This document shows positions 2,320-50,086 of a stretch of DNA of 53,821 bases, one piece after another. A model generated the notes under the pieces. It saw nothing but the letters and a program-made list of their open reading frames with translations. It searched no databases and was not told where the DNA came from. Position numbers and translations under genes: made by a program. Source of the stretch: Nemertoderma westbladi (lineage: Eukaryota; Animalia; Xenacoelomorpha); the NCBI GenBank assembly GCA_032718475.1, contig JAUCBJ010004101.1:1-53821 (forward strand). The letters are read 5' to 3'. Within the stretch, counting starts at the first letter, position 1; each line of letters begins with the position of its first letter.

Positions 2320-2448
2320 AGGGATGTACTTTACACTCCGATTTCCCAACTCTCGAGCCAGAATCCGTCGATGTTTCTTCGTCTTTAGGATCTTCCGTAT
2401 CTTATTTCCGTTTCCACCTCTTCTCGCGTTTCCTCGACTTCCCTTACC
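2320..2448 (-). pseudogene. 3'-truncated BAF-like exon (left edge of array)
   Basis: Matches the exon start through ...RELGNRSVKYIP, then breaks into unrelated sequence at ~2320, losing the GIG motif and the rest of the fold. Confidence 0.8.
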
Positions 2449-4045: not shown

Positions 4046-4215
4046 TGTAGACTGCCACATATAATAATCAATGTCGAACAACATATACAATCAAACAAGT
4101 TACTGTAACTAAACTGTCCTGTAAACTGCTTTCCTATATAGCTATATAACACAACTAAGAGTTACACAATATTCATAAAGGTCAATCTGTGAACAAGGGT
4201 CAATCAGTCACTACA
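4046..4215 (-). repeat. 3' LTR
   Basis: Preceded on the minus strand by polypurine tract GAGGGGGGGAAG (4227-4216). Confidence 0.95.
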
Positions 4216-6180
4216 CTTCCCCCCCTCATCTTAGGTGGACGACCTCTTGGTCGAGGAAATTGAGAATGCTGGATAACGTGTGTGCATAGTCTCAAATGGT
4301 CGATGTGAATTACTTGATTCCACGTGGGTCTGTCAGGTATCGAAATACGGACATTAACTGGACCTATATGTTCTGTTACAACGTAAGGTCCATCCCATCG
4401 TGGTATTAGACTAGACGCCAAGCCTGGAGATGTTGGAGGTAAATGTGTCCGCCATACCTTATCCCCGACACAGAATTTCCGCTCTTCAGCTTTGTATATC
4501 TTGTCATGATATTCGTGTTGTCTGCGACGAAAGATTCGCGTTTTGTGGATAACATTATCTAGTTTAACTTGATTAATCGGTTTATCATTTATAATTCCCA
4601 ACCAGGATAGAGCTGGTATAGGTGAGTGAACTTGATTTACTACGTCCATTGGAGATAAACCTAGACTTTTATGTACAGAGTGATTGTAAGTAGAAACAAA
4701 TGAATCAATATGACAGTCCCATGAAGTTTGAGTACCATCTTTAGTTTCTACTAATTGCGCTCTAATTTGGTCCTTTATGGTTCTGACCAACCTCTCTGCC
4801 TTACTGGTTACTGTATTGTTGATTTTCTGTTGGCGACAAAAGTTTTTAAACTCATTTGAAATAAAGCATCGTCCTTGATCTGTCAATATGGTTTTTATTT
4901 CTAGGGGCTTTTGACATTTTCTAATCAATTTCATTAAACATCCAATGACAGTTGTTGAAGTTGTGTTTCCTACTGCGAACACATCTAGAAACCGAGAGAA
5001 ATGATCTACGACAACAAGCAAATGAGTGTTTCCAGTAGAAGACTTTGGGAAAGGGCCACAGAAATCCATAGCAACCCGCTCATAAGGTCTTGTAACCTCA
5101 GGTAGGGATTGAAGTGGCATCGGTGCTGGTGGTAAAACCTTTGCGCGAAGACACACATCACAATTTTTTAAGTAAGTCTTTAACTCCTTATCCATATTTG
5201 GCCAATAGCATTCCCGTTGTAATAATGATAACGTTTTCTCATAACCCAGGTGAGCACTATTGTAACCATGAACAGATTTGACAACTTTAGAACGAAGTCC
5301 TTTGGGCACAAATAACCTGGATTTATAAGTGTATATCCCTTCAACAGTTTTAGTGAATCGATAATTAATTCGGTCAAATTCGCTGTCAGCTTCTTGAAGC
5401 TGAATGAGTTCCTCTTTCGAAAGTTGTTTTAATCCCCCATTTTCACTCTCATCAAGCACAAACACATCCATATATGAACAATTACTAGGCAACCTAGAAA
5501 GCGCATCTGCCACTTGATTAGAAGACCCCTTTTCGTGTTTGATAGATTTTAATCCTTCAAACTCTAGAAGTCGTAGTTGCCAACGAGCAAGTCTACCAGT
5601 TGCAGTTTTATTATTAATTAGCCATTGTAATGGAGCATGATCAGACAAGACATGTACTTCAGCGCCATAAGTATAAGACTGGAACCGTTCCAATGCGAAT
5701 ATAACTGCCAATGCTTCCTTTTCTATTGTGGAATAGTTCTTTTCACTTGTAGTAAGATTCCTACTTGCAAATGCTATTGGGTGAAACAAACCAGCATTAT
5801 CTGTTTGACTTATGACGGCACCAACTCCAAGATTAGATGCATCGCAATGGACAAAGAATGGTTCACCAACTTTAGGGTGTACAAGAACTGGGGCACTAAT
5901 TAAGGCTTCCTTTAAACTTTCGAATGAAAATTCCTGTTCATCACTCCAAACAAATGGGACTTGTTTCCGTGTAAGTTCATACAATGGTTCAGCAATAAGG
6001 TTAAAGTTCCTTATGAATTGTCTATAGGTATTGACCAAACCCAGAAATTTTCTCACTTCAGAAACATTTGTTGGCGCTATCATGTTCTTAACAGCAATTA
6101 TCTTTGACTCACTTGGATGTACGCCGTCCTCATCAACAATGAATCCCAAAAATTCAACTCTTCTCTGTAAAAATGAACAT
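4200..6180 (-). CDS. pol: Pol part 2: RT thumb, RNase H, integrase
   Basis: CDAS...EKEALA...SDH (RNase H); HHCC; D-D-E core with short deletion before AERL; GPY motif; C-terminal RPRGRP. Confidence 0.9.
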
Positions 6181-7311
6181 TTTTTTTGGCTGGAGTTTTA
6201 ATTTTGCAACTTTTAATCGGCGGAAAACTTCACGAAGTATCTCTAAATGTTGCTTTAGTTCCGTTGTGACCACATAGATGTTGTCCATGTAGAAAACAAC
6301 GCACGACATGTCACCAAATAAATTACTCATTAATCTTTGGAATGTTGGTGGGGCATTATTTAGACCAAAGGCCATGACAACAAATTCAAAATGGCCAAGA
6401 CTACACGAAAACGCAGTTTTATGTCTATCATCTGAGGCAAGAGGTATCTGCCAAAATCCAGATGCCAAATCTATTGATGAAAAATATTTCGCTCCGTATA
6501 GTTTATCTAATAAATCAGAAATTCGTGGTAATGGAAATGCATCTTTCTCTGTTACAGCATTCAGTGCACGGAAATCTACGCACACTCTGTCGTTTCCATC
6601 AGGCTTCTTAACAATAACCAAAGGTGATGAATATGGTGAGGAAGAAGGAGTGATAATATCCTTATCCAGCATATCTTTAATATTAGACTCTAGGAGATCT
6701 CTTTTAGCCAAAGGAACATGGTATGGCCTCTGAAATATTGGTATCTCAGATTTAGTTTTTATGTGATGTTCCACAAGGTTTGTACGCCCAAGTGGTGGTT
6801 CAAACAAATCATTATATTCCTTTGTTAGAAAGTAAAATGTTTCTAAATGTTCACTGGGAACATCTCTATTTATAGTACATTTCTCGATTAAATTTATTGT
6901 GACTACTTTATCATTTACTGAAAGAGAAGAAGGAATACTATCCGAAAATTTTAGTGTTACATTTAGAGCACGTAGTCCATTGACCCCAAGAATGCATGGA
7001 TGAGCCGAATCTGTGGCCACGAAAACGTCTACATCGGCCTTAGAAGTGCCTATTTGAATTGGAATTTGACAACGACCTCGAACATTAAGGGGTACACCAT
7101 TCGCAGTTTTTAAGATGAACTGAGTTGGCTTTAACTGATTTTCAGTAACTAATGAAGAGTGCAGAATTGTAGAGGATGCACCAGAGTCCATCAGTATCTC
7201 GCAAATCTGCTCATTGATAGTTCCTTTAACAAAGAATCGACCTTGAGTTCTCTCATGGGCTATCACAGCAACAGTGGTGTCGCCCACCATCACTGTTGTT
7301 GGAAGTTTAAA
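6154..7311 (-). CDS. pol: Pol part 1: aspartic protease + reverse transcriptase (defective)
   Basis: LMDSGAS protease motif; RT motifs CVDFRALN, IDLASGFWQ, MAFGLNNAP; YxDD reads YMDN; frame broken at the A-run near 6180. Confidence 0.9.
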   Translation of the reverse strand, partial: FKLPTTVMVGDTTVAVIAHERTQGRFFVKGTINEQICEILMDSGASSTILHSSLVTENQLKPTQFILKTANGVPLNVRGRCQIPIQIGTSKADVDVFVATDSAHPCILGVNGLRALNVTLKFSDSIPSSLSVNDKVVTINLIEKCTINRDVPSEHLETFYFLTKEYNDLFEPPLGRTNLVEHHIKTKSEIPIFQRPYHVPLAKRDLLESNIKDMLDKDIITPSSSPYSSPLVIVKKPDGNDRVCVDFRALNAVTEKDAFPLPRISDLLDKLYGAKYFSSIDLASGFWQIPLASDDRHKTAFSCSLGHFEFVVMAFGLNNAPPTFQRLMSNLFGDMSCVVFYMDNIYVVTTELKQHLEILREVFRRLKVAKLKLQPKKMFIFTEKS

Positions 7312-8306
7312 TCAACCGCGGAAGATTGTTGCATAGAATCCGAAATGTAGTTAGCGTCAGTCGTAGCTGGTTGATACTGGTTATAATCTTGAGCGTACTG
7401 GAAACCATTGATTGATTGTTCCATCGTATTATTAAATGCCTGTTCTGTAACTGGTGCAACACTAGCGCGATAATTTGTTGGATTTTGGAAGTGTTGAATA
7501 TGGGGTGCTCGAAAATATTGATAACGAGGTTGTTGAAACCGTGGTGGTCTCATATTTTGCCGCATTCCCTCAGTGGCCTGAGGTCTATAGCCTTGTTTTA
7601 GTTGTTGGGTTTTTGAAGGACAATCTCGTTGTATATGGCCACGACCTTGACAACAGTAGCAGAGGATTGACTCACGTATCTGAGCATTTGCGCCAGAAAA
7701 CCTAACAGCATCAACCTCATCTTCATAGTTAAGGTATTCATTAACTGCCACAGACGAAGACGATATTGATGGAGATTGCTTATATGATGACTTCAATTCC
7801 TCATTTCGCGCAAGAGAGAAGGCACTCTCTAAATTTCCTGGATCCTTCAAGGTAAGTTTCTCCCGCAATTCGTCACGTAGACCAGCAACAAAGACAGAAA
7901 CTGCCAAATTATTCCTATGGGTTACTGCAATACCAGCAAATGCGTTCTTACAAATGTCTGAAATAGAGGCATAATAAGCGAGAACAGATTCGCCTGGCTG
8001 TTGTTTAGCTTTAAATGCTCGTCGCATCGCAAATCTAATTGCATTTCCTGGCCATAGCTTTGTATATAGATTTACTTCGATGTCATCGAAAGTGGGAAGA
8101 CTGGTATCCAAGAGAACACGAATCTTGTAAGGAACATAAGCAGGCAAACGACGAATTCCCTCTTGATCAACCCAGCCATTTACGGTGCAAGCCAGGCGGA
8201 AATCGCGAAAGAAATTTTCGATAGATTCACGGTCCTCATTTGCTAACTTTGGTGGAACTTCAAAATGCGTTTGTATTAATAGTTTGTCTGGCTTATTGTC
8301 TTCCAT
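7290..8306 (-). CDS. gag: Retrotransposon Gag
   Basis: 338-aa ORF after the PBS with capsid-like QQPGESV motif and CCHC knuckle CYCCQGRGHIQRDC. Confidence 0.92.
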   Translation of the reverse strand: MEDNKPDKLLIQTHFEVPPKLANEDRESIENFFRDFRLACTVNGWVDQEGIRRLPAYVPYKIRVLLDTSLPTFDDIEVNLYTKLWPGNAIRFAMRRAFKAKQQPGESVLAYYASISDICKNAFAGIAVTHRNNLAVSVFVAGLRDELREKLTLKDPGNLESAFSLARNEELKSSYKQSPSISSSSVAVNEYLNYEDEVDAVRFSGANAQIRESILCYCCQGRGHIQRDCPSKTQQLKQGYRPQATEGMRQNMRPPRFQQPRYQYFRAPHIQHFQNPTNYRASVAPVTEQAFNNTMEQSINGFQYAQDYNQYQPATTDANYISDSMQQSSAVDLNFQQQ

Positions 8307-8363
8307 TCTGGTTGTGAATGTTGATAATTTGTTCTTCGGCTGGTAAATTGATATTGATCATGA

Positions 8364-8381
8364 ATCCCACTTCTGACACCA
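8364..8381 (-). promoter_or_regulatory. Primer binding site, tRNA-Leu type
   Basis: TGGTGTCAGAAGTGGGAT 1 nt after the 5' LTR, complementary to a tRNA-Leu 3' end (...AUCCCACUUCUGACACCA). Confidence 0.85.
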
Positions 8382-8382
8382 G

Positions 8383-8552
8383 TGTAGACTGCCACATATA
8401 ATAATCAATGTCGAACAACATATACAATCAAACAAGTTACTGTAACTAAACTGTCCTGTAAACTGCTTTCCTATATAGCTATATAACACAACTAAGAGTT
8501 ACACAATATTCATAAAGGTCAATCAGTGAACAAGGGTCAATCAGTCACTACA
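8383..8552 (-). repeat. 5' LTR
   Basis: Direct repeat of 4046-4215, adjacent to the PBS. Confidence 0.95.
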
Positions 8553-8560
8553 ATATTATA

Positions 8561-9011
8561 TTAAAGCTTTTCGAAGTACATTTTGTCTGTAAGAACTTTA
8601 TCTTTCGGCATTTTCTTCCCTTTTCCACGTTTATTCGATCTTCCCCGTCCTTTCTTCCCCTGTAAATATCAATTCATATACTGTTACACTCACTTAATTA
8701 CGTATATGTACTGTATATAGTAGACCTAAACCCACATTATATCCTATATTATATTTAGTCAAACAAACCTTCCCTTTCTTTCCCTTTCCTCTACGACTTC
8801 TAGATCTGCTTCCTTTACCTCGGCGACTCCTAGACCTGCTCTTCTTTCCCTTCTTACTTCCCTTTCGTTTTTTACGTCTCCTTTTCTCCATTTCGTTCCT
8901 GCTGGTGGAACGATTACCACTCTTTGATAGGCTCCTACTTTTCCTTTCATCTAAGGCCCAACTCGGCAAACTATCCAACCCCAAATCACTTTCTTCAGGT
9001 TGAACAGACAT
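8561..9011 (-). CDS. Protamine-like (SNBP-like) basic protein, long form, 113 aa
   Basis: Exon 1 9011-8769 (MSVQPEESDLGLDSLPSWALDE...KRRRKKRKGSKKGKKSRSRSRRGKGSRSRSRRGKGKKGK|gtttgt). 109-nt intron. Exon 2 8659-8561 after tttacag| (GKKGRGRSNKRGKGKKMPKDKVLTDKMYFEKL*), phase 0. Confidence 0.75.
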
Positions 9012-9959: not shown

Positions 9960-11670
9960 AGCCAAAAACAATTACCAATTGATGGAAAGGAGCAGGTTAA
10001 GGCCGGATTTTCTAACCAAAACAATAAACAGTCACTTTACCAAATGAAGGAAAGGAGCAGGTTACAGAGGTGGGCCTTTCTAACCAAAACAATAAACGAT
10101 CATTTAACTAATTGAGGGAAAGGAGCGGGTTACAGAGGCGGGATTTTCTAACCAAAACAATAAGCAGTCACTTTACCAAATCAGGGAAAGGAGCAGGTTA
10201 CAGAGACGGAATTTTCTTAACCAAAACAATAAACGATAACATTACCAATTGAGATAAAGGAGCAGGTTACATAGGCGGGTTTTTCTAACCAAAACAATAA
10301 ACAGTCACTTTACCAAATCAGGGAAAGGAGCAGGTTACAGAGACGGGATTTTCTTAACCAAAACAATAAACGATAACATTACCAATTGAGATAAAGGAGC
10401 AGGTTACATAGGCGGGTTTTTCTAACCAAAACAATAAACAGTCACTTTACCAAATCAGGGAAAGGAGCAGGTTACAGAGACGGGATTTTCTTAACCAAAA
10501 CAATAAACGATAACATTACCAATTGAGATAAAGGAGCAGGTTACAGAGGCGGGATTTTCTAACCAAAACAATAAGCAGTCACTTTACCAAATCAGGGAAA
10601 GGAGCAGGTTACAGAGACGGGATTTTCTTAACCAAAACAATAAACGATAACATTACCAATTGAGATAAAGGAGCAGGTTACATAGGCGGGTTTTTCTAAC
10701 CAAAACAATAAACAGTCACTTTACCAAATCAGGGAAAGGAGCAGGTTACAGAGACGGGATTTTCTTAACCAAAACAATAAACGATCACTTAACTAATTGA
10801 GGGAAAGGAGCAGGTTACAGAGGCGGGATTTTCTAACCAAAACAATAAACGATCACTTAACTAATTGAGGGAAAGGAGCAGGTTACAGAGGCGGGATTTT
10901 CTAACCAAAACAATAAACGATCATTTAACTAATTGAGGGAAAGGGGTAGGTTACAGAGGCGGAATTTTCTTACCAAAACAATAAACGATCACTTAACTAA
11001 TTGAGGGAAAGGAGCAGGTTACAGAGGCGGGATTTTCTAACCAAAACAATAAACGATCATTTAACTAATTGAGGGAAAGGGGCAGGTTACAGAGGCGGAA
11101 TTTTCTAACCAAAACAATAAACGATCATTTAACTAATTGAGGGAAAGGGGCAGGTTACAGAGGCGGGATTTTCTAACCAAAACAATAAACATTCACTTTA
11201 CTAAATGAAGGAAAGGAGCAGGTTACAGAGGCGGGCCTTTCTAACCAAAACAATAAACGTAACTTTACCAAATCAGGGAAAGGAGCAGGTTACAGAGGCG
11301 GGATTTTCTAACCATAACAATAAACAGTCACTTTAATAATAATAATAATAATAATAATAATATTGGTTATTTATATAGCGCTTTTCTATGCTCAGCATAC
11401 TCAAAGCGCTTTTATTACAGTATTATCATTACCCCAGCAAAGCCAGGTTCCCATTATACCGCTGGGTTGACGTAGGCACTAAATGTCTAAAGTGTCTTGC
11501 CTAGGGACACAACAGTGCGAAATTTCTACAGCCTTTAGTCGACAAACTTGCACTTTACTAAATGAAGGAAAGGAACAGGTTACAGAGGCGGGCCTTTCTA
11601 ACCAAAACAATAAACTTTACCAATTCAGGGAAAGGAGCAGATTACAGAGGCGGGATTTTCTAACCAAAAC
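9960..11670. repeat. 68-bp minisatellite array, copy 1
   Basis: Unit gggaaaggagcaggttacagaggcgggattttctaaccaaaacaataaacgatcacttaactaattga, period 68 (10801 to 10869); alternating dimer in ~10140-10790. Confidence 0.95.
11336..11550 (-). mobile_element. 5'-truncated CORE-type SINE with L2-like tail
   Basis: Minus strand has TGTCCCTAGGCAAGACACTT (CORE-like), then AGCGCTATATAAATAA and an (ATT)n tail; flanked by cacttta direct repeat. Internally deleted copy at ~35577-35748. Confidence 0.6.
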
Positions 11671-12970
11671 AACCGGTCAGCCGGTAGGCCTACCAGTACC
11701 GTATTTAAATGGTAGGCTACACAGTAGGCCTACACAGCAGTACCGGTGCCGGTACCGGTACTAAAATACTTAAAATACCTGCTTTATACCTACATCTGTA
11801 CATGCAATACTATATACTATACTATACTATATACTAATACCGGTACTGATAGCCTGAGAGAACAGCAGTAGAGAAACCGGTAGCATGGAACCTAACGGTA
11901 AATTTCTGGAGGACATAAAAAGTAAAAAAAAAGCTAATACCGGTACTGATAGCCTGAGAGAACAGCAGTAGAGAAACCGGTTACATGGAACCTAACGGTA
12001 GATTTCTGGAGGACATAAAAAGTAAAACAAAAAGGACAAAAAAAGGATTTAAACGGACAGTAAAAATTATTGCGTTAAATAATCCCAAACAAACATAGCC
12101 TAGCTATGTAATTATATCCCTACAGTATGCTATGCGAGCTAGCAGTGACCGTAGATGAACCTACACTAGCACTGTCTGGGTGGGAGACAGTAATTTTTAT
12201 TAAATAAGACATTTATGTTTGATGTTATAAAACAAATTTTCCGTAGTTTTTTTATAATTTTGTACAGTACCGTAGATGGACTTTATTTTTCTCCTTTCTA
12301 TAAATTCCATTATTAGATTATATCAAAACAGATAAACAATAGAATTTACAATAAATTAAATAAATAAATTGTCCATAGTACCATTTTGGAAAAATATGAA
12401 TAGCTACACAATAGAGATATTGTATAGGAATACCGCTGTTGCCAACCAACTCATAAAATAAATAACACGTTCTAGAATTTTGTAAATTTATTAGATGAAA
12501 AAGATGGCCTACAGCGAATGATCGTTCTTGCAATCTTTGAACGCCTATATCTGAGCTGTTTCTCAACGAAATTCAGATATTCTTACATATTTGGAATCCT
12601 TGCAACTAAAGCTTTTTAATGATATGAAGAAATTACGACTAATCGGAAGAATGGCCACGATACGGAGGGTGCGATTTCGAAAAAGACAGTTTTTTAAACG
12701 CTTATAAAAAAAATTTCAAGACAAAATCGCAAATTCCGGCTTCATGGGGTCATCGACGGTGAGTGGAACTACAGTAGTTGTGTTTCAAATTTCAAGCAAC
12801 ATGATAAAGATTTTAAAAATTTGGGGGGAGGGGGGGGGGGGGGGGGGGGTCCGTGTCATCAGAAAATGACACTATATTACGGGACATGGTGTATATATTA
12901 GAGCAGAATTATCATTATTAATTATTTGCTTTTATTTTTAAACATACATGAATGATTAGGGGTGGTTGGA

Positions 12971-13121
12971 CCGTTAACAGTGTTGTAATTATTTTTTTGG
13001 AATTATTTGTAGGCGATTTGTGGGAATTATTTATTCCGTTAACAGTGTTGTGATTATTTGTGGGCATTAATTCCGTTAACAGTATTGGAATTATTTGGGG
13101 GCTGTTATTCCGTTGACAGTA
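12971..13121. repeat. Four-fold ccgttaacagt repeat module (8 copies in the array)
   Basis: Also at ~16858, 22238, 26558, 30588, 37157, 41119, 49228. Confidence 0.8.
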
Positions 13122-13493
13122 TTACATTTCTGTTAAATACATAAGTCAATAATTATTAGCTATCGACTCAGTAATTATCCGACCGAAGGAGATTTAAAGT
13201 TAAAAATATATTAAAAAATTTTATAAAAATATTTTAATAAAAATTAAAAAAAATAAAATAAAACCATTCTTACGATACAAACAGTAAATAGAACAACAAA
13301 CTCGTACGAAATTAAAATTACCGTGGACAGAATGAATATTTCATGTGATGGCGCGGAATTGAGTAGTTTTGTATTAATAATTAAATATAATGCAATGCTA
13401 CAAACAGCAAATAAATATTTAGATCTGGTTACATAACTATCCAATAATATGTGGGCTCAATCTATATTATTTACTCGAGTCGGCTGTTAACAT

Positions 13494-13829
13494 TTACGAG
13501 TAGTATGCTTCGCACATGATCGATATAGCTCTATGAGCTCGACGGGAATAGGCCTTGTAAAAGTGGTCCCCACAGATCTTGGAGAGCCACAGATGGAAAT
13601 CTTCCAGCTTCTCTCTTAGTAGAATGTACTTCGCTAAGACCTGGTAGGCGCGTGTGAATCCATTATTGGCGAGACTACCTCCGAATACTTCTCCTATTCC
13701 AGGGATGTACTTTACACTCCGATTTCCCAACTCTCGAGCCAGAATCCGTCGATGTTTCTTCGTCTTCAGGATCTTCCCTATCTTCTTTCCGTTTCCACTT
13801 CTTCTCGCGTTTCCTCGACTTCCCTTACC
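13494..13829 (-). CDS. BAF-like terminal exon, intact, without its own short exon 1
   Basis: 336-nt open exon with ctttcag acceptor. The upstream intron switches to the 'type A' spacer after gacaaggatatca (~14127). Confidence 0.65.
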   Translation of the reverse strand, partial: GKGSRGNARRSGNGKKIGKILKTKKHRRILARELGNRSVKYIPGIGEVFGGSLANNGFTRAYQVLAKYILLREKLEDFHLWLSKICGDHFYKAYSRRAHRAISIMCEAYYS

Positions 13830-15517
13830 CTGAAAGAATTGTATTGAACATTTTGTAAAATGATTTTACGATGTTTAATAATAACCGAGTCACGAAAGTA
13901 AACTAAAAAAAGTAAAGTTATCTTTGTACATTATTTCAGGGAATACGCACAAAGAATCACTTATTTCCAATGCGATTCCCCCAGAACTACTGTATTCTGC
14001 CTAGAAGAAACTTACTCTTTTAGCGATCGTTTAAGGATGTAAGGCGCATAGATGAAACCGGCTTAACTTGAACCCACGGTAGCCAGATATGTTAATTATA
14101 GGTATTGGGCTAAACGACAAGGATATCATCGCGGATATCATATCTCGTTCGAACGACTTTGCAGTATATTTTCTGGCGATTTATTATATATGTATATGAT
14201 ATATCTGTATTTTGTACAGAAAAATTTTCTGTACAAATTAAATTATTGTTATAATTATTATATTATTTATTATTATTTATATATATTTTTATATTTATAT
14301 TTAATTATTATGTTATATTATTTATATTGTAAATTATATTGTACAGAAAATATATTTAATATATTTTCTGTAAAATATAATTTGTGGCGATGCGGATCAG
14401 TTTTAGAGCTATTCTGGTCCCCCTGGATGAAAAGTAGGGTAAAAGTAAAAAAAAATTAAATGAAAAAATGTTGTGTTTGGTTGGATAATTGTGAAGGTAT
14501 ACGGGTTTTCGAGGTCGCTGAACATGATGACGCAACTATAAATAGTGCCCCAGGACGAAAAGTACAAGAAGTATCAAAAATTTCAACAGTGAAATTTTGC
14601 CATTGTTTGGATAATTCTGACGCTATGTACTGTATGTAGCCTTTCACAGTCGCTGATCACGATACAACTCTTTAGAATATTTGTGGTTACGCAACTATCG
14701 TTTTTGGTGCTTGTCTGGTGGGACGAAAAATACAATAAGACCAGAAAATCAGGTTTATTTGCCAGTAATGATTTAGGTTTACGCGAATTTGATGCCATCA
14801 TTATTCATTGTCTAAAGAGACCAACAGTCATAGCCATCGCGCGAACAAAGCGTCTTACATTATGCTATGACTCTAAGTTAAAGAAATATCAGTCAAATAA
14901 GTATGTGAAACTAAACATTATTTTTGATCAAACCTGTTGTCTCCTGAGCTAGAAAATCAGGATATCAATTTATTATATTTGACCGTTTTGCATGCTGTGC
15001 TGTATCTCTCCGTACACAGTGTATATAATATAGTAGACCTACAATTCAATTATAATTAACATAATAAAAATAAACCCGCCTCTACATCGATTAATTAACT
15101 CATACCAGGGGAGTGCACAGCCCTGAATATACAGTATCATTATTATTTATTCTATTGGTCTTTGATTAACGTACAGTACAGTAGGCACTATTTTATTGTG
15201 CATTAGATCTCTTTTAGCACTGCTAGTGTTTGTTCATGTAGGGCCTACTTATTGTTTTACCAGGAAGCTATCGATTTCTAATACAGGTAGTAGCTATAGA
15301 TTTTATACAAATTCAAAAATATAATATAGTTTCAAATAATATTGTTGCAAAATTAATCTGTTTATAATAAATAGTCTAAAATACTGTTCCTGCGCAGTTG
15401 ACCAATATACTGTAGTTAACGCTTTTACATTATTAATATTATTATATTATATTAAAGCTTTTTGAAGAACATTTTGTCTGTAAGAACTTTATCTTTCGGC
15501 ATTTTCTTTCCTTTTCA

Positions 15518-15911
15518 TCATTTCTTCGATCTTCCCCGTCCCTTCTTCCCCTGTAAATATCAATTCATATTCTGTTACACTCACTTAATTACGTATATGT
15601 ACTGTATATAGTAGACCTAAACCCACATTATATCCTATATTATATTTAGTCAAACAAACCTTCACTTTCTTTCCCTTTCCTCTACGACTTCTAGATCTGC
15701 TTCCTTTACCGCGGCGACTCCTAGACCTGCTCTTCTTTCCCTTCTTACTTCCCTTTCGTTTTTTACGTCTCCTTTTCTCCATTTCGTTCCGGCTGGTGGA
15801 ACGATTACCACTCTTTGATAGGCTCCTACTTTTCCTTTCATCTAAGGCCCAACTCGGCAAACTATCCAGCCCTAAATCGCTATCTTCCTCTTGCCCCTCT
15901 TGAACAGGCAT
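15518..15911 (-). CDS. Protamine-like protein, short form (94 aa)
   Basis: Exon 1 15911-15660; exon 2 15550-15518 reads GKKGRGRSKK then TGA TGA. Confidence 0.75.
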
Positions 15912-16024
15912 GCTTTTTCAATGTATTTACCAAAAATTATGTACAGTATTTCCTAAAGAAAAAATGATATCAGAATTTATTTTGTAAATCATTTTTCTCC
16001 TAAATGACATAAGTTGATGTGTCG

Positions 16025-16163
16025 TTCTATTATATATCATAGTTTGAATTCCAGAACTTAGTTTTGATTGGTTGATTTGAGCAATACTCTTCTGATTATC
16101 TGATTGGCTAAAATAAACTTGTATTTGGTAGGCGGTTTTGGTGGGAGGTTTACCCGTTAACGG
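16025..16163 (-). promoter_or_regulatory. Putative promoter of the protamine-like gene (repeated in each copy)
   Basis: TATATAA ~120 nt upstream of ATG; TTTGAA 16043-48; CCAAT boxes at 16067-71 and 16103-07; CCGTTAACGG palindrome 16154-63. Confidence 0.55.
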
Positions 16164-16845
16164 GATTCGGCATTACTATGTTGGGTACCCACTTTTTGAC
16201 CTTTTATTTGACCATGTTAATGGCTATTAACAGCCACTTCTCTTTCGAGACAACTGGCGGAATGGGTGAAGGGGTTCGGTGTCCCCACGCGTTTCGCTTC
16301 TGACGGCGGCCCACAGTTCTCAGGAAAGGATTTCCTAAGCGTCTGGGGAGTCGAGCCTATCACATCCTCCCCAGTTTACCCACAGAGTAACGGCCTTGCG
16401 GAGTCCGCTGTCAAGGCGACTAAGGCGTTTCTAACTAAGAAAAGGGGGAAACTGGACTCATCGTCATTCCAGGAGGGACTCCTGGAATCCCAGACAGCCA
16501 CATACAATCGTGGCGCGCGACCCCTACCCCCCTTAGCGGTAGGGGCACCTGTGGGGGTTCAAAACACCACATCGAAACGTTGGGACCGCACCGGGGTCAT
16601 TGTGGAATCCAATCCCAACCGGAAGTACAGCGTTCGGACGCCTTCCGGTCGGTGCCTCACCCGCAACCGCCGCCACCTCATCCAGGGCACGGCCACTGGC
16701 ATCAACGACGGCTCCAGCGCCGCCACGCCACAGAAGGGCGTGTTCACTGGGCTGACGAACAAGCCAGTGTGTCTCCCGATCGGCCACGCCGTTCCTACCC
16801 ACGCCGCCGAAGGCAACCGCCCAATAGACTATGATAGTTTGTGTA
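16164..16845 (+). mobile_element. Fossil Gypsy integrase fragment embedded in the repeat unit
   Basis: FGVP...SDGGPQF...SSPVYPQSNGLAESAVK integrase core and RNRRHL C-terminal motif; GC-rich; no LTRs; internal deletion. Confidence 0.85.
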
Positions 16846-17380
16846 GGGGTGGATGGACCGTTAACAGTGTTGTAATTATTTTTTTGGAATTATTTGTGGG
16901 CGATTTGTGGGAATTATTTATTCCGTTAACAGTGTTGGGATTATTTGTGGGCAGTAATTCCGTTAACAGTATTGGAATTATTTGGGGGCGGTTATTCCGT
17001 TAACAGTATTACATTTCTGTTAAATACACAAGTCAATAATTATTAGCTATCGACTCAGTAATTATCCGATCGAAGGAGATTTAAAGTTAAAGATATATTA
17101 AAAAATTTTATAAAAATATTCTAATAAAAATTAAAAAAAATAAAATAAAACCATTCTTACGATACAAACAGTAAATAGAACAACAAACTCGTACGAAATT
17201 AAAATTACCGTGGACAGAATGAATATTTCATGTGATGGCGCGGAATTGAGTAGTTTTGTATTAATAATTAAATATAATGCAATGCTACAAACAGCAAATA
17301 AATATTTAGATCTGGTTACATAACTATCCAATAACATGTGGGCTCAATCTATCTTATTAACTCGAGTCGGCTGTTAACAT

Positions 17381-18137
17381 TTACGAGTAGTATGCTTCGC
17401 ACATGATCGATATAGCTCTATGAGCTCGACGGGAATAGGCCTTGTAAAAGTGGTCCCCACAGATCTTGGAGAGCCACAGATGGAAATCTTCCAGCTTCTC
17501 TCTTAGTAGAATGTACTTCGCTAAGACCTGGTAGGCGCGTGTGAATCCATTATTGGAGAGACTACCTCCGAATACTTCTCCTATTCCAGGGATGTACTTT
17601 ACACTCCGATTTCCCAACTCTCGAGCCAGAATCCGTCGATGTTTCTTCGTCTTCAGGATCTTCCCTATCTTCTTTCCGTTTCCACTTCTTCTCGCGTTTC
17701 CTCGACTTCCCTTACCCTGAAAGAATTGTATTGAGCATTTTGTAAAATGATTTTACGATGTTTAATAAGAACCGAGTCACGAAAGTAAACTAAAAAAAGT
17801 AAAGTTATCTTTGTACATTATTTCAGGGAATACGCACAAAGAATCACTTATTTCCAGTGCGATTCCCCCAGAACTACTGTATTCTGCCTAGAAGAAACTT
17901 ACTCTTTTAGCGATCGTTTAAGGATGCAAGGCGCATAGATGAAACCGTGTTAACTTGAACCCACGGTAGCCAGATATGTTAATTATAGGTAATGGGCTAA
18001 ACCACAAGGATATCACAGAGAAATATATCCCAACATAAATTATATTGTATTAAAATAAATAAACAAACCTTCCCTTTCATCCCATTCCCTCTACGACTCA
18101 TTGACCTGCTTCTATTCCCTTTCTTCTTCGCAGCCAT
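17381..18137 (-). CDS. BAF-like protein with protamine-like basic N-terminal tail, complete two-exon copy 1 (134 aa)
   Basis: Exon 1 18137-18069 (MAAKKKGNRSRSMSRRGNGMKGK, donor AAG|GTTTGT). Intron 18068-17717, acceptor ctttcag|, phase 0. Exon 2 17716-17381: GKGSRGNARRSGNGKKIGKILKTKKHRRILARELGNRSVKYIPGIGEVFGGSLSNNGFTRAYQVLAKYILL...FHLWL...CEAYYS*. Aligns by eye to BAF ([27 protein letters not shown]...GFDKAYVVLGQFLVL...FREWL...WCDAFL). Confidence 0.85.
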
Positions 18138-18249: not shown

Positions 18250-18362
18250 TTATTTATATATGAAGACTAAATTCTAGAATTAGTTAACCCACCGATTAAA
18301 TTATATTATAGGTGGTTGATTGGATGTAATAAACTAACGGCGTATTAATTCTGTTAACGGTA
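18250..18362 (-). promoter_or_regulatory. Putative promoter of the BAF-tail gene (also ~23635-23745, ~44720-44835)
   Basis: TATATAAAT ~120 nt upstream of ATG, CCAATC at ~18318, TAACGG at ~18335 and ~18355. Confidence 0.5.
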
Positions 18363-19602: not shown

Positions 19603-20068
19603 TTAAAGCTTTTTGAAGAACATTTTGTCTGTAAGAACTCTATCTTTCGGCATTTTCTTCCCTTTTCCACGTTTATTCGATCTTCCCCGTCCTTTCTTTC
19701 CCTGTAAATATCAATTCATATTCTGTTACACTCACTTAATTACGTATATGTACTGTAAATTTATATGGTTTATATAGTAGACCTAAACCCACATTATATC
19801 CTATATTATATTTAGTCAAACAAACCTTCCCTTTCTTTCCCTTTCCTCTACGACTTCTAGATCTGCTTCCTTTACCTCGGCGACTCCTAGACCTGCTCTT
19901 CTTTCCCTTCTTACTTCCCTTTCGTTTTTTACGTCTCCTTTTCTCCATTTCGTTCCGGCTGGTGGAACGATTACCACTCTTTGATAGGCTCCTACTTTTC
20001 CTTTCATCTAAGGCCCAACTCGGCAAACTATCCAGCCCTAAATCGCTATCTTCCTCTTGAACAGGCAT
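19603..20068 (-). CDS. Protamine-like protein, long form (113 aa)
   Basis: Exon 1 20068-19826; exon 2 19701-19603 (...MPKDRVLTDKMFFKKL*). Confidence 0.75.
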
Positions 20069-22765: not shown

Positions 22766-23522
22766 TTACGAGTAGTATGCTTCGCACATGATCGATATAG
22801 CTCTATGAGCTCGACGGGAATAGGCCTTGTAAAAGTGGTCCCCACAGATCTTGGAGAGCCACAGATGGAAATCTTCCAGCTTCTCTCTTAGTAGAATGTA
22901 CTTCGCTAAGACCTGGTAGGCGCGTGTGAATCCATTATTGGCGAGACTACCTCCGAATACTTCTCCTATTCCAGGGATGTACTTTACACTCCGATTTCCC
23001 AACTCTCGAGCCAGAATCCGTCGATGTTTCTTCGTCTTCAGGATCTTCCCTATCTTCTTTCCGTTTCCACTTCTTCTCGCGTTTCCTCGACTTCCCTTAC
23101 CCTGAAAGAATTGTATTGAGCATTTTGTAAAATGATTTTACGATGTTTAATAAGAACCGAGTCACGAAAGTAAACTAAAAAAAGTAAAGTTATCTTTGTA
23201 CATTATTTCAGGGAATACGCACAAAGAATCACTTATTTCCAGTGCGATTCCCCCAGAACTACTGTATTCTGCCTAGAAGAAACTTACTCTTTTAGCGATC
23301 GTTTAAGGATGCAAGGCGCATAGATGAAACCGTGTTAACTTGAACCCACGGTAGCCAGATATGTTAATTATAGGTAATGGGCTAAACGACAAGGATATCA
23401 CAGAGAAATATATCCCAACATAAATTATATTGTATTAAAATAAATAAACAAACCTTCCCTTTCATCCCATTCCCTCTACGACTCCTTGACCTGCTTCTAT
23501 TCCCTTTCTTCTTCGCAGCCAT
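22766..23522 (-). CDS. BAF-like protein with protamine-like tail, complete copy 2 (134 aa)
   Basis: Exon 1 23522-23454 (MAAKKKGNRSRSRSRRGNGMKGK), exon 2 23101-22766. Canonical GT-AG, phase 0, open frame. Confidence 0.85.
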
Positions 23523-24989: not shown

Positions 24990-25440
24990 TTAAAGCTTTT
25001 TGAAGAACATTTTGTCTGTAAGAACTTTATCTTTCGGCATTTTCTTCCCTTTTCCACGTTTATTCGATCTTCCCCGTCCTTTCTTTCCCTGTAAATATCA
25101 ATTCATATTCTGTTACACTCACTTAATTACGTATATGTACTGTATATAGTAGACCTAAACCCACATTATATCCTATATTATATTTAGTCAAACAAACCTT
25201 CCCTTTCTTTCCCTTTCCTCTACGACTTCTAGATCGGCTTCCTTTACCTCGGCGACTCCTAGACCTGCTCTTCTTTCCCTTCTTACTTCCCTTTCGTTTT
25301 TTACGTCTCCTTTTCTCCATTTCGTTCCGGCTGGTGGAACGATTACCACTCTTTGATAGGCTCCTACTTTTCCTTTCATCTAAGGCCCAACTCGGCAAAC
25401 TATCCAGCCCTAAATCGCTATCTTCCTCTTGAACAGGCAT
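24990..25440 (-). CDS. Protamine-like protein, long form (113 aa)
   Basis: Exon 1 25440-25198; exon 2 25088-24990. Confidence 0.75.
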
Positions 25441-27077: not shown

Positions 27078-27413
27078 TTACGAGTAGTATGCGTCGCACA
27101 TGATCGATATAGCTCTATGAGCTCGACGGGAATAGGCCTTGTAAAAGTGGTCCCCACAGATCTTGGAGAGCCACAGATGGAAATCTTCCAGCTTCTCTCT
27201 TAGTAGAATGTACTTCGCTAAGACCTGGTAGGCGCGTGTGAATCCATTATTGGCGAGACTACCTCCGAATACTTCTCCTATTCCAGGGATGTACTTTACA
27301 CTCCGATTTCCCAACTCTCGAGCCAGAATCCGTCGATGTTTCTTCGTCTTCAGGATCTTCCCTATCTTCTTTCCGTTTCCACTTCTTCTCGCGTTCCCTC
27401 GACTTCCCTTACC
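27078..27413 (-). CDS. BAF-like terminal exon, intact, orphan
   Basis: Same 336-nt exon (E->D near the C-terminus); type A spacer upstream. Confidence 0.65.
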   Translation of the reverse strand, partial: GKGSRGNARRSGNGKKIGKILKTKKHRRILARELGNRSVKYIPGIGEVFGGSLANNGFTRAYQVLAKYILLREKLEDFHLWLSKICGDHFYKAYSRRAHRAISIMCDAYYS

Positions 27414-29093: not shown

Positions 29094-29478
29094 TCATTTC
29101 TTCGATCTTCCCCGTCCTTTCTTCCCCTGTAAATATCAATTCATATACTGTTACACTCACTTAATTACGTATATGTACTGTATATAGTAGACCTAAACCC
29201 ACATTATATCCTATGTTATATTTAGTCAAACAAACCTTCCCTTTCTTTCCCTTTCCTCTACGACTTCTAGATCTGCTTCCTTTACCTCGGCGACTCCTAG
29301 ACCTGCTCTTCTTTCCCTTCTTACTTCCCTTTCGTTTTTTACGTCTCCTTTTCTCCATTTCGTTCCTGCTGGTGGAACGATTACCACTCTTTGATAGGCT
29401 CCTACTTTTCCTTTCATCTAAGGCCCAACTCGGCAAACTATCCAGCCCTAAATCGCTACCTTCCTCTTGAACAGGCAT
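29094..29478 (-). CDS. Protamine-like protein, short form (91 aa)
   Basis: Exon 1 29478-29236; exon 2 29126-29094 ending TGA TGA. Confidence 0.75.
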
Positions 29479-31110: not shown

Positions 31111-31446
31111 TTACGAGTAGTATGCTTCGCACATGATCGATATAGCTCTATGAGCTCGACGGGAATAGGCCTTGTAAAAGTGGTCCCCACAGATCTTGGA
31201 GAGCCACAGATGGAAATCTTCCAGCTTCTCTCTTAGTAGAATGTACTTCGCTAAGACCTGGTAGGCGCGTGTGAATCCATTATTGGCGAGACTACCTCCG
31301 AATACTTCTCCTATTCCAGGGATGTACTTTACACTCCGATTTCCCAACTCTCGAGCCAGAATCCGTCGATGTTTCTTCGTCTTCAGGATCTTCCCTATCT
31401 TCTTTCCGTTTCCACTTCTTCTCGCGTTTCCTCGACTTCCCTTACC
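31111..31446 (-). CDS. BAF-like terminal exon, intact, orphan
   Basis: Same 336-nt exon; upstream type A spacer is cut at ~32640 and the unit has no protamine-like gene. Confidence 0.6.
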   Translation of the reverse strand, partial: GKGSRGNARRSGNGKKIGKILKTKKHRRILARELGNRSVKYIPGIGEVFGGSLANNGFTRAYQVLAKYILLREKLEDFHLWLSKICGDHFYKAYSRRAHRAISIMCEAYYS

Positions 31447-32639: not shown

Positions 32640-33710
32640 TAGTAATTAATCTAGTAATTACAGGTTCATCAGAAACGGAAGGTGTAATATTAGTAGTCAT
32701 ATTATTATTATTTACCAAGTTTTGTGATCGATCATCATCATTCGAGTTTAAACCTGAGAGCCCGAACTGATTAGTTTGGCACCTCAACCGTTGGGTTGTG
32801 GATCGCACGTTCCGGGGTGCCCTTCTCCCGTCTCATTTGCTGGCTGATCGAGAGAGCCTTCTTCCGGCTCATTGGCTGGCTGATCGAGTGAGCCTTCTTC
32901 TTCACCCAGCACGTCGAACGCGTTGTGAAGATGCAAACTAGAGACCCGAGAACCCTCTTGAGGTCTACCAGCAGTATCATCAGAACCAGACAGAGGTTGT
33001 GAGTATTTGCCGGGAATTATTATCCATTCGGGATTTGAAGGAGTAGAATTCAGTGATCGTTGAAGCTGAACTGTAATTGGCGTCTGCGCCCCAGCATTTT
33101 CAACCGTCTCAGATTGTATAATACCCTGTTGTTGATATTCTGTGGCATCCATTTCAGCCTCGCAGAATGACTCTTCAATGTGCACGAGCGGATCTAGTTC
33201 TACAGTAGACCTGGTGACCGAAGAAGAGGACACAGTTGTGCTCGTTGGCGCGGGCGTAGTGGGCGCGGGCCTCCCCATAGTGGGCGCGCGCTGCCTCATG
33301 CGTTGAGCGGGCAGAACTGTAGTAGTAGGCGCGGACGGCCCTGAAGTGGGCGCGGGCGGCCCCGTGCGTTGCATGGGCGGCCTTGTAGTTGGCGCAGGCG
33401 GCCCCGTGCGTTGCATGGGCGTCCTTGCAGTAAACGCGGGCGGCCTTGCAGTGAACGCGGGCGGCCCCGTGCGCTGCATGGGCGGCCCCGTGCGTCGCAC
33501 GGGCGGCCCTGTAACTGTGGGCGCGTGCGACCCCGTGCGTTGCGTGGGCGGCCCTGTAGTGTGCGCGGGCGGCACTATGAAACCAAATGAATTACGGTAA
33601 CCTCGTTCATCGATTGTGTAACCTCTCCGATTCCTATTGTACTGATAATCAAATGCTTGATTACTATCATTTAGTGTGTCCCTTCCTTGTTGGAACCTGT
33701 TGTACTCGTT
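32640..33710 (-). mobile_element. Foreign insert with Pro/Thr-rich repeat ORF, probable LINE ORF1 fragment
   Basis: ORF 33575-32784 with GC-rich QRTGPP repeats and LHLHNAFDVL resembling the L-x-N-R-F-x-x-L motif of LINE ORF1; abrupt junctions with array sequence. Confidence 0.45.
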
Positions 33711-34069
33711 TATTAATTGTGCATAATGACTTTTGTTGTCCCTTTAATGACTTTTGTTGTCCTTTTAATGACTTTTTATGTATGTATTTCTTCAAACTGT
33801 CAGACTGCTGATTTCTGGACTGTCAGACAGTTGATTTCAACTGTCTGATGCCAACTGTCTATGCCAAAACATTCAAAATTTGTTGATTTCTGGTCTGTCG
33901 GAAAGTTGGTTTCACTATGCCTGTGCCAAAACATTCCATGATTCCATGATTTATAGACTATGAGATAGATTTCCATATGCGCCTGTGGTAAAAGACTCTA
34001 AATTTAATAGTTTGTGGTTGTTGTCGATAATCGATTACCACATAACGTAGCAAAACACTCATTTTATAG

Positions 34070-35870: not shown

Positions 35871-37679
35871 CCGGTCAGTCGGTAGGCCTACCAGTACCGT
35901 ATTTAAATGGTAGGCTACAAAGTAGGCCTACACAGCAGTACCGGTGCCGGTACCGGTACTAAAATACTTAAAATACCTGCTTTATACCTACATCTGTACA
36001 TGCAATACTATATACTATACTATACTATATACTAATACCGGTACTGATAGCCTGAGAGAACAGCAGTAGAAAAACCGGTAGCATGGAACCTAACGGTAAA
36101 TTTCTGGAGGACATAAAAAGTAAAAAAAAAGCTAATACCGGTACTGATAGCCGGAGAGAACAGCAGTAGAGAAACCGGTTACATGGAACCTAACGGTAGA
36201 TTTCTGGAGGACATAAAAAGTAAAAAAAAAAAGGACAAAAGAAGGATTTAAACGGACAATAAAAATTATTGCGTTAAATAATCCCAAACAAACATAGCCT
36301 AGCTATGTCATTATATCCCTACAGTATGCTATGCGAAATAGCAGTGACCGTAGATGAACCTACACTAGCACTGTCTGGGTGGGAGACAGTAATTTTTATT
36401 AAATAAGACATTTATGTTTGATGTTATAAAACAAATTATCCGTAGTTTTTTTATAATTTTGTACAGTACCGTAGATGGACTTTATTTTTCTCCTTTCTAT
36501 ACATTCCATTATTAGATTATATCAAAACAGATAAACAATAGCATTTACAATAAATTAAATAAATCCATTGTCCATAGTACCATTTTGTAAAAATATGAAT
36601 AGCTACACAATATAGATATTGTATAGGAATACCGCTGTTGCCAACCAACTCATAAAATAAATAACACGTTCTAGAATTTTGTAAATTTATTAGATGAAAA
36701 AGATGGCCTACAGCGAATGATCGTTCTTGCAATCTTTGAACGCCTATATCTGAGCTGTTTCTCAACGAAATTCAGATATTCTTACATATTTGGAATCCTT
36801 GCAACTAAAGCTTTTTAATGATATGAAAAAATTACGACTAATCGGAAGAATGGCCACGATACGGAGGGTGCGATTTCGAAAAAGACAGTTTTTTAAACGC
36901 TTATAAAAAAAATTTCAAGACAAAATCGCAAATTCCGGCTTCATGGGGTCATCGACGGTGAGTGGAACTACAGTAGTTGTGTTTCAAATTTCAAGCAACA
37001 TGATAAAGATTTTAAAAACTTGGGGAGAGGGGGGGTCCGTGTCATCAGAAAATGACACTATATTACGGGACATGGTGTATATATTAAAGCAGAATTATCA
37101 TTATTAATTATTTGCTTTTATTTTTAAACATACATGAATGATTAGGGGTGGTTGGACCGTTAACAGTGTTGTAATTATTTTTTTGGAATTATTTGTGGGC
37201 GATTTGTGGGAATTATATATTCCGTTAACAGTGTTGGGATTATTTGTGGGCAGTAATTCCGTTAACAGTATTGAAATTATTTGGGGGCTGTTATTCCGTT
37301 GACAGTATTACATTTCTGTTAAATACACAAGTCAATAATTATTAGCTATCGACTCAGTAATTGTCCGACCGAAGGAGATTTAAAGTTAAAGATATATTAA
37401 AAAATTTTATAAAAATATTTTAATAAAAATTAAAAAAAATAAAATAAAACCATTCTTACGATACAAACAGTAAATAGAACAACAAACTCGTACGAAATTA
37501 AAATTACCGTGGACAGAATCAATATTTCATGTGATGGCGCGGAATTGAGTAGTTTTGTATTAATAATTAAATATAATGCAATGCTACAAACAGCAAATAA
37601 ATATTTAGATCTGGTTACATAACTATCCAATAATATGTGGGCTCAATCTATCTTATTTACTCGAGTCGGCTGTTAACAT

Positions 37680-38015
37680 TTACGAGTAGTATGCTTCGCA
37701 CATGATCGATATAGCTCTATGAGCTCGACGGGAATAGGCCTTGTAAAAGTGGTCCCCACAGATCTTGGAGAGCCACAGATGGAAATCTTCCAGCTTCTCT
37801 CTTAGTAGAATGCACTTCGCTAAGACCTGGTAGGCGCGTGTGAATCCATTATTGGCGAGACTACCTCCGAATACTTCTCCTATTCCAGGGATGTACTTTA
37901 CACTCCGATTTCCCAACTCTCGAGCCAGAATCCGTCGATGTTTCTTCGTCTTCAGGATCTTCCCTATCTTCTTTCCGTTTCCACTTCTTCTCGCGTTCCC
38001 TCGACTTTCCTTACC
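37680..38015 (-). CDS. BAF-like terminal exon, intact, orphan
   Basis: Same 336-nt exon (Y->C: VLAKCILL); type A spacer upstream. Confidence 0.65.
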   Translation of the reverse strand, partial: GKESRGNARRSGNGKKIGKILKTKKHRRILARELGNRSVKYIPGIGEVFGGSLANNGFTRAYQVLAKCILLREKLEDFHLWLSKICGDHFYKAYSRRAHRAISIMCEAYYS

Positions 38016-43852: not shown

Positions 43853-44609
43853 TTACGAGTAGTATGCTTCGCACATGATCGATATAGCTCTATGAGCTCG
43901 ACGGGAATAGGCCTTGTAAAAGTGGTCCCCACAGATCTTGGAGAGCCACAGATGGAAATCTTCCAGCTTCTCTCTTAGTAGAATGTACTTCGCTAAGACC
44001 TGGTAGGCGCGTGTGAATCCATTACTGGCGAGACTACCTCCGAATACTTCTCCTATTCCAGGGATGTACTTTACACTCCGATTTCCCAACTCTCGAGCCA
44101 GAATCCGTCGATGTTTCTTCGTCTTCAGGATCTTCCCTATCTTCTTTCCGTTTCCACTTCTTCTCGCGTTTCCTCGACTTCCCTTACCCTGAAAGAATTG
44201 TATTGAGCATTTTGTAAAATGATTTTACGATGTTTAATAAGAACCGAGTCACGAAAGTAAACTAAAAAAAGTAAAGTTATCTTTGTACATTATTTCAGGG
44301 AATACGCACAAAGAATCACTTATTTCCAGTGCGATTCCCCCAGAACTACTGTATTCTGCCTAGAAGAAACTTACTCTTTTAGCGATCGTTTAAGGATGCA
44401 AGGCGCATAGATGAAACCGGGTTAACTTGAACCCACGGTAGCCAGATATGTTAATTATAGGTAATGGGCTAAACGACAAGGATATCACAGAGAAATATAT
44501 CCCAACATAAATTATATTGTATTAAAATAAATAAACAAACCTTCCCTTTCATCCCATTCCCTCTACGACTCCTTGACCTGCTTCTATTCCCTTTCTTCTT
44601 CGCAGCCAT
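43853..44609 (-). CDS. BAF-like protein with protamine-like tail, complete copy 3 (134 aa)
   Basis: Exon 1 44609-44541, exon 2 44188-43853. Same structure; one N->S change (GSLASN). Confidence 0.85.
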
Positions 44610-46540: not shown

Positions 46541-46580
<40 letters not shown>

Positions 46581-49750: not shown

Positions 49751-50086
49751 TTACGAGTAGTATGCTTCGCACATGATCGATATAGCTCTATGAGCTCGAC
49801 GGGAATAGGCCTTGTAAAAGTGGTCCCCACAGATCTTGGAGAGCCACAGATGGAAATCTTCCAGCTTCTCTCTTAGTAGAATGTACTTCGCTAAGACCTG
49901 GTAGGCGCGTGTGAATCCATTATTGGCGAGACTACCTCCGAATACTTCTCCTATTCCAGGGATGTACTTTACACTCCGATTTCCCAACTCTCGAGCCAGA
50001 ATCCGTCGATGTTTCTTCGTCTTCAGGATCTTCCCTATCTTCTTTCCGTTTCCACTTCTTCTCGCGTTCCCTCGACTTCCCTTACC
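49751..50086 (-). CDS. BAF-like terminal exon, intact, orphan (right edge of array)
   Basis: Same 336-nt exon; intron homology stops at ~50149 (accgagtca) and unique sequence follows. Confidence 0.6.
   Translation of the reverse strand, partial: GKGSRGNARRSGNGKKIGKILKTKKHRRILARELGNRSVKYIPGIGEVFGGSLANNGFTRAYQVLAKYILLREKLEDFHLWLSKICGDHFYKAYSRRAHRAISIMCEAYYS

Follow-up and report, generated by a model that had tools for sequence, protein, structure and literature searches.

The 53,821-nt stretch of Nemertoderma westbladi DNA analyzed here (hereafter, the window) contains, from 2.3 to 50.1 kb, an array in which nine copies of an exon encoding a BAF domain alternate with seven copies of a small, protamine-like gene (hereafter, the partner). 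The complete BAF gene adds a basic, RS repeat-containing tail to the N-terminus of the BAF domain (hereafter, BAF-tail) and, judging from its sequence, is a chimera of BAF and the 5' end of a protamine-like gene. Its product is probably a sperm nuclear basic protein that would condense DNA together with the protamine-like partner. The BAF exons in the array are the following.

18069..18137, minus strand: exon 1 of BAF-tail copy 1, 23 codons, K/R/S/G-rich, with the ATG at 18137 and a phase-0 GT donor
17717..18068, minus strand: intron of copy 1, 352 nt, GT-AG, 6-8 stops per frame
17381..17716, minus strand: exon 2 of copy 1, 111 codons (~21 tail residues, then the whole BAF domain) and the stop
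22766..23522, minus strand: whole copy 2, same two-exon structure
43853..44609, minus strand: whole copy 3, same two-exon structure
13494..13829, minus strand: intact exon 2 in a type B unit, with a different spacer in place of the promoter and exon 1
27078..27413, minus strand: intact exon 2 without exon 1, type B unit
31111..31446, minus strand: intact exon 2 without exon 1, type B unit
37680..38015, minus strand: intact exon 2 without exon 1, type B unit
49751..50086, minus strand: intact exon 2 at one edge of the array, similarity stopping 63 nt into the intron
2320..2448, minus strand: exon 2 broken after codon 43, without exon 1, at the other edge of the array

The three whole copies show only 2-5 differences over 757 nt. 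The 3' end of their intron is pyrimidine-rich, the acceptor is the sole AG within the final 60 nt, and the unspliced reading ends after 46 codons. Because the intron is closed in all frames and offers this single AG, and because the first Met of exon 2 comes no earlier than codon 105, the BAF domain could be produced only by splicing, and the 18069/17716 splice is predicted from these signals. The predicted product consists of 134 aa (pI 11.0-11.1, net charge +26/27, 25% K+R), of which the N-terminal 44 form a K/R/S/G-rich tail with an RS repeat (net +16/17, 36-39% K+R). An earlier, sequence-only reading of this DNA had described a gene of 23 and 111 codons in three complete copies, with a basic RS tail attached to BAF; both the gene structure (at 17381, 22766 and 43853) and the tail are confirmed, and the six exon 2 copies that lack exon 1, five intact and one broken, are an addition to that description. 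The type B spacer that replaces the BAF promoter and exon 1 is found at 14128-15056 and also near 2759, 27712, 31741 and 38312, and an AT-rich inverted repeat lies close to its breakpoint.

By both profile and fold, the BAF-tail protein is a member of the BAF family. Exon 2 matched the Pfam family PF02961 (SAM_BAF) with E ~2e-17 and 64 bits, against a cut-off of 25, in all three copies scanned, and matched human BAF among the PDB sequences (E 1e-11). An AlphaFold2 model of the protein, which rests on an 89-row BAF alignment, has a mean pLDDT of 84 and five helices, with low confidence for the first 20 residues. When this model was used as the query in a Foldseek search of the PDB, the top 8 hits were all human BAF, with TM-scores of 0.80-0.83 by target (0.82 over human BAF). 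The full BAF fold asserted in the sequence-only reading is, accordingly, borne out by the Pfam match and by the predicted structure.

The gene that alternates with BAF, not mentioned in that reading, also consists of two exons and lies on the same strand.

19603..20068, minus strand: partner, long form, 81 + 32 codons, 124-nt intron, acidic 21-aa leader and RS/K/R/G region
24990..25440, minus strand: partner, long form, 113 aa, 109-nt intron
8561..9011, minus strand: partner, long form, more diverged, with an LTR element 8 nt past the stop
15518..15911, minus strand: partner, short form, 94 aa, two TGA at exon 2 codons 11-12
29094..29478, minus strand: partner, short form, 91 aa
39685..40069, minus strand: partner, short form, 91 aa
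46072..46357, minus strand: damaged partner without the normal start and most of exon 1, LINE poly-A in the promoter, another in-frame ATG remaining

The partner product comprises an acidic leader (21-24 aa, net charge -5 to -7) followed by a K/R/S/G region with two RS repeats, and contains no BAF domain. Three copies encode 113 aa, three with tandem stops encode 91-94 aa, and one is damaged. The two adjacent TGA codons (15518-15550, 29094-29126 and 39685-39717, minus strand) yield a more basic short form, and each of the three short-form copies is located 5' of a BAF exon 2 without exon 1. Overall, K+R account for 39-41% of the partner (pI 11.7-12), reaching 53-63% in the basic part, where there are 15 RS/SR steps. 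A Pfam scan of both exons of one copy produced no family match, and a word-limited search for near-length homologues of exon 1 returned 11 candidates, none of them at E <= 1. The lack of a folded domain and the acidic leader are protamine traits, but the share of Lys (20-23%) is at least that of Arg (17-20%). Both genes encode proteins with the composition of sperm basic proteins, being small (134 aa for BAF-tail, 91-113 aa for the partner), highly basic and K/R-rich, with RS repeats, and it is composition that makes the partner a candidate sperm protein. N-terminal precursor cleavage is reported to be common in protamines, and cleaved-leader protamine precursors resemble the partner in that a non-basic leader precedes basic clusters and RS repeats (PMC12216123); unlike them, the partner has Lys as frequent as Arg, is Gly-rich, and has no Cys and no sequence relative found in our searches. 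Amplified genes of sperm basic proteins are likewise described as fast-evolving and often arranged in tandem arrays (PMC9917458).

The two genes are clearly related around the splice junction. In gap-free, junction-anchored comparisons, the final 45 nt of exon 1 agree at 36 positions (codon-shuffle mean 16.9) and the initial 48 nt of exon 2 at 32 (shuffle mean 18.1), values reached by 0 of 5000 shuffles in both cases; at the protein level, 12 of 15 and 8 of 16 junction-flanking residues, respectively, are identical. Both introns are in phase 0 and begin with the same 8 bases (8/8). Free local alignment detects the similarity of the first exons (score 49, 0 of 500 shuffles) but not that of the second exons, for which 47 of 500 shuffles scored as high, so that significance there is obtained only when the comparison is anchored at the junction. 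The similarity ends ~16 codons into exon 2, where BAF starts. Elsewhere, the introns barely align (24 of 500 shuffles), and neither the 3' flanks (483 of 500) nor the TATA-to-ATG stretches (101 of 500) align; a search for a trace of BAF-core DNA 3' of the partner gene found none (458 and 405 of 500 shuffles as high).

Upstream of the start, at the same distance from the ATG, the two genes have in common a block that ends with TATATAA at -122 to -125 (2 of 500 shuffles), a CCAAT context (16/19 nt; 9 of 500 shuffles) and paired MYB-like sites. These promoters were compared by anchoring since MAFFT misaligned them.

18254..18360, minus strand: predicted promoter of BAF-tail copy 1, with two MYB-like sites, CCAAT, the partner-shared block and TATA at -123

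There are 44 TATATAA sites in the window, of which 10 have CCAAT and MYB-like sites upstream, and 9 of these 10 are the promoters of the 9 genes with an intact start, a count for which the windows were picked after the promoters had been seen and in which the copies are not independent. Given that the genes agree in the promoter block, in the exon sequences on both sides of the junction and in the donor, the tail is homologous to the protamine-like gene and the BAF gene is chimeric. Either a BAF sequence was added to one copy of the basic gene, or the latter originated by loss of BAF. This homology of the tail, the intron position and the promoter to an interleaved, free-standing protamine-like gene strengthens the case for a sperm chromatin protein, and, with such a neighbor, the tailed BAF is better supported than when it was first described. 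Furthermore, because all donors and acceptors are in phase 0, the BAF copies without exon 1 would be reachable by splicing from exon 1 of the upstream partner, which could give a longer fusion protein.

MYB sites are linked to male germ cells. Our literature search for this link found no supporting paper. MYB, CCAAT and TATA boxes are generic, and the sequence does not indicate the tissue. Conceivably, the two proteins could be a basic chromatin pair that functions in the oocyte, in a compact somatic nucleus or in antiviral capture of foreign DNA, which BAF is reported to bind (PMC13443024). We regard such a role outside sperm as decidedly unlikely: a leader followed by an RS/K/R region, without any folded domain, is a layout typical of sperm basic proteins, and tandem amplification together with fast divergence fits these proteins as well.

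The residues of the BAF core bear on what the protein might do. The DNA-motif residues K6, G25, I26, G27 and V29, as well as H7 and R8 (human numbering), are identical to those of human BAF, so the helix-hairpin-helix motif G25-I26-G27-x-V29 is intact at the sequence level, and Thr occupies the position of human Ser4; K6 is, presumably, a DNA-binding residue of BAF. K32, K33 and N70 of human BAF are changed, the first two to G/S. Conservation reaches 80% or more at 16 positions across 88 BAF relatives, and the BAF-tail core keeps 10 of these, the six changed ones being F10, E13, P14, K18, G47 and L50. The substitutions relative to human BAF include F10I, E13R, P14E, G47A, Q48K, L50I, L58D and W84M; A12, F39, L52 and W62 are retained. 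The roles of G25, which faces DNA (PMC6212729), and of L58, P14 and Q48 are those given in PMC6212729 and PMC5638020. The homodimer of BAF centers on G47. G47 and W84 are located at or near the dimer interface and, although G47A is conservative (A is found at this position in 7% of the 88 aligned BAFs), DNA bridging by the BAF-tail core is not assured because of G47A, W84M and the replacement of K32/K33 by G/S. As for the nuclear envelope, P14 is reported to lie buried when BAF is complexed with lamin (PMC6212729), and L58 is a LEM-binding residue whose replacement by Arg abolishes LEM binding and spares DNA bridging, according to PMC5638020. L58D and P14E are non-conservative changes at the LEM and lamin surfaces, but, given that the identity of the LEM contacts (3/8) and lamin contacts (2/6) is close to the ~33% background, the loss of nuclear-envelope binding by the core is only suggested. 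With respect to charge, both the tail and the core are unusually basic: the net charge of the core is +10, compared to a median of +1 and a range of -5 to +9 in the 86 of the 88 aligned BAFs that were long enough to be scored.

Compared with BAF (BANF1; PF02961; PDB 1CI4, 2EZX, 6GHD and 9J8M), the BAF-tail protein has the same five-helix fold (TM 0.82), the G25-I26-G27-x-V29 motif, K6-H7-R8 and a Thr at Ser4; it differs in its 44-aa basic RS tail, ~33% identity, the +10 core and its encoding in a multi-copy array. A second comparison is with mammalian BAF-L (BANF2), a divergent paralogue of BAF with links to spermatids and to the exchange of histones for protamines (PMC8877947; 10.1101/2024.05.16.594580), and it is possible, though fairly unlikely, that the BAF-tail protein is a spermatid-stage regulator of this kind rather than a bulk packing protein. 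Such a regulator would be expressed from a borrowed testis promoter, would use its tail as a signal for import or RS docking, and would act at the nuclear envelope or while histones are removed, possibly heterodimerized with ordinary BAF. Mouse BAF-L is reported to be testis-enriched, to bind histones and protamines and to affect their exchange (PMC8877947), to heterodimerize with BAF, with weak DNA binding of its own (PMC13443024), and to act at the spermatid envelope (10.1101/2024.05.16.594580), with conflicting results of its knockout in mouse across these sources (PMC8877947; 10.1101/2024.05.16.594580; PMC13443024). The modest basicity of the BAF-tail protein (25% K+R) and the retention of A12, F39, L52 and W62 fit a similar role. 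However, its core is more basic than those of all 86 scored relatives, the L58 and P14 positions are charged, and its amplification alongside a protamine-like gene suggests that large amounts are needed. BAF-L also differs in its weak DNA binding, and the available parts of these reports describe neither a basic tail nor a fusion with a protamine gene.

In a 50%-identity library, we found 132 BAF matches, to which the BAF-tail core is ~33-43% identical, with none above 43%. N-terminal extensions of at least 20 aa occur in 49 of these 132 relatives, and none of the 132 has an RSRS/SRSR run in its extension. The sole strongly basic extension is that of P0111 from the acanthocephalan Neoechinorhynchus agilis (97 aa, 32% K+R). 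P0111 and P0135 from this species (KAL7672967.1 and KAL7672968.1) carry K/R-rich N-terminal extensions of 97-111 aa with a net charge of +24, and N. agilis BAF might be an independent case of a basic-tailed BAF. A word-limited search for near-length homologues of BAF exon 2 gave 8 candidates, none at E <= 0.001. In a quick tree of 87 rows, in which only 2 of 84 branches are well supported, BAF-tail sits on a long, unplaced branch (1.53 vs a median of 0.54), and orthology to vertebrate BAF-L (BANF2) cannot be read from this tree.

The array is interspersed with mobile elements and satellites. A young Ty3/Gypsy LTR retrotransposon (4046-8552, minus strand), with 170-bp LTRs that are 99.4% identical, a 4-bp target duplication, and gag, protease-RT and RNase H-integrase in separate frames, is inserted 8 nt past the stop of the partner copy at 9011-8561. 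A LINE-type reverse transcriptase frame (46544-48518, minus strand, 586 aa) has its poly-A tail in the promoter of the damaged partner. An integrase-like retroelement fragment (16221-17003, plus strand), with equivalents in each unit, and a 37-bp tandem repeat carrying MYB-like hexamers sit between the BAF 3' end and the next partner promoter and were duplicated with the genes. Satellites with 68/137-bp, 146-bp and 68-bp units are located at 9972-11335, 34085-35581, 42172-43428 and 50931-51390, and a 6.5-kb duplication comprises 9974-16487 and 34215-40652. A Pro/Thr-rich frame of 319 codons (32784-33743, minus strand), with a 21-bp repeat and no Pfam match, occupies the place upstream of the BAF exon at 31446 where a partner copy would be expected. 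An adenylate kinase exon (53508-53638, plus strand), which we take to be AK8-like, adjoins the array; its two-domain relative is P0133 (58%). With its GT-AG introns, this adenylate-kinase-like exon and its Gypsy and LINE elements, the window has the features of eukaryotic, probably animal, DNA. Between unit types, the partner 3' flanks are 68-77% alike, compared to 97-99% for the coding parts, which suggests gene conversion or module shuffling.

Transposon debris is present in every repeat unit, as might be expected if these were not host genes at all, or not expressed ones, that is, a cassette borne by a virus or transposon, or a chance basic frame beside a BAF pseudo-exon. This appears highly improbable in view of the canonical introns, the TATA/CCAAT promoters and the junction homology that far exceeds that of shuffled sequences. 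A viral origin was specifically rejected: none of the 38 viral-contig and 492 metagenome pattern matches was confirmed, and there was no viral fold match at E <= 0.001.

Selection tests within the array have low power, the copies being 97-99% identical. All 8 full-length copies of BAF exon 2 are free of stops and indels. Among these, there are 1 synonymous and 5 non-synonymous changes on 77 and 256 sites (p 1.0), two of the latter five falling in whole copies, and hence no sign of purifying selection at the codon level; in the 7 copies with both regions, exon 2 nevertheless changed less than the intron (6/336 vs 18/288, p 0.006). In partner exon 1, the 6 synonymous and 6 non-synonymous changes on 50 and 193 sites (p 0.02), counted in 5 of the 6 copies with the one carrying a 9-nt insertion left out, indicate some constraint. 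We consider it unlikely that the array is conflict-driven or decaying and that the chimera is a young by-product of the protamine-like gene duplicating repeatedly, for the most part without function or with a dominant-interfering effect, comparable to the Drosophila Mst77Y or Dox-type amplifications. The absence of exon 1 in 6 of the 9 BAF copies, the early stops in 3 of the 7 partner copies and the damage to another, the interruption of the array by LTR and LINE insertions and satellites, and the lack of a codon-level purifying signal in BAF exon 2 would all be explained in this way, and short-lived sex-chromosome amplifications of such genes are described (PMC9917458, PMC10120018). Against such decay, the whole copies retain full promoters, and a core that is only ~33-43% identical to any BAF keeps the fold, with 8 of 8 full exons open, which requires long selection before the recent duplications.

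In the preferred explanation, sperm DNA packing, the chimeric gene combines a fast-evolving BAF domain with three features of its protamine-like neighbor, namely the promoter, exon 1 and the place of the intron. Through the shared MYB/CCAAT/TATA promoter, both genes would be co-expressed in late male germ cells. The BAF core may dimerize and bridge two DNA duplexes, the +17 tail may neutralize phosphates along the DNA, and the altered lamin and LEM surfaces could free the protein from the nuclear envelope. In the partner, cleavage of the acidic leader would convert a precursor into the mature protein. Phosphorylation of the RS repeats, and also of the Thr at the position of human Ser4, might time loading and release. 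SRPK1 acts on protamines. Its action on RS repeats has been shown for the lamin B receptor (PMC5617974), and BAF dimers are reported to compact chromatin in vitro (PMC5638020). Arguing against sperm packing, 25% K+R and a pI of 11 are weak beside protamines.

The packing design would be the same as that of two known groups of sperm proteins with different globular cores. The H1-derived PL proteins of molluscs, tunicates and wasps similarly combine a small globular DNA-binding domain with a disordered K/R-rich tail and co-occur with a tail-only basic protein, as described in PMC13148410 and PMC5550673. Their core, however, is a winged helix, whereas that of BAF-tail is BAF, a dimeric bridger, and its tail is short and exclusively N-terminal; lacking a winged helix, BAF-tail falls outside the H1-derived PL proteins. 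The Drosophila HMG-box proteins (Mst35A/B, tHMG) illustrate the use of a chromatin domain other than that of H1 in packing sperm DNA, and they are less basic than protamines and tandemly amplified with degenerate copies (PMC9917458); they have a different fold, and the tail of BAF-tail is traceably shared with a free protamine-like gene. The sequence-only reading had presented protamine-like sperm proteins as derivatives of histone H1, and such a class does exist, but the fly HMG boxes show that not all members have this origin (PMC13148410). It also knew of no described example of BAF co-opted in sperm; we, too, found no BAF with a protamine tail among the literature matches listed, where older and subscription invertebrate sperm work is thinly covered such that another name is possible, although a tail-less BAF-L is reported in mouse spermatids (PMC8877947). 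As the fly HMG-box proteins and BAF-L precede it, the "new class" is a candidate rather than a result. The chances are about even that BAF joins the H1 winged helix and the HMG box as the third globular core of sperm packing proteins and that the array records its origin, via in-frame joining of BAF to the protamine-like exon 2 or, in reverse, the origin of a protamine by loss of BAF.

Sperm packing proteins are usually traced to H1, with the fly HMG-box proteins as the main exception. If the present explanation is correct, BAF-cored packing would be another independent origin, based on the principle of dimeric cross-bridging combined with charge neutralization. Because the protamine-like gene adjoins the BAF gene and has its promoter, exon and intron position in common with it, the DNA itself may show how a protamine made of a tail alone is connected to a protein with both a domain and a tail, with the parent-like gene alongside. 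The BAF-tail protein is small and should be easy to express, which makes bridging and compaction directly testable. Finally, these findings suggest that the spermatid role of mammalian BAF-L could reflect repeated recruitment of BAF to sperm.
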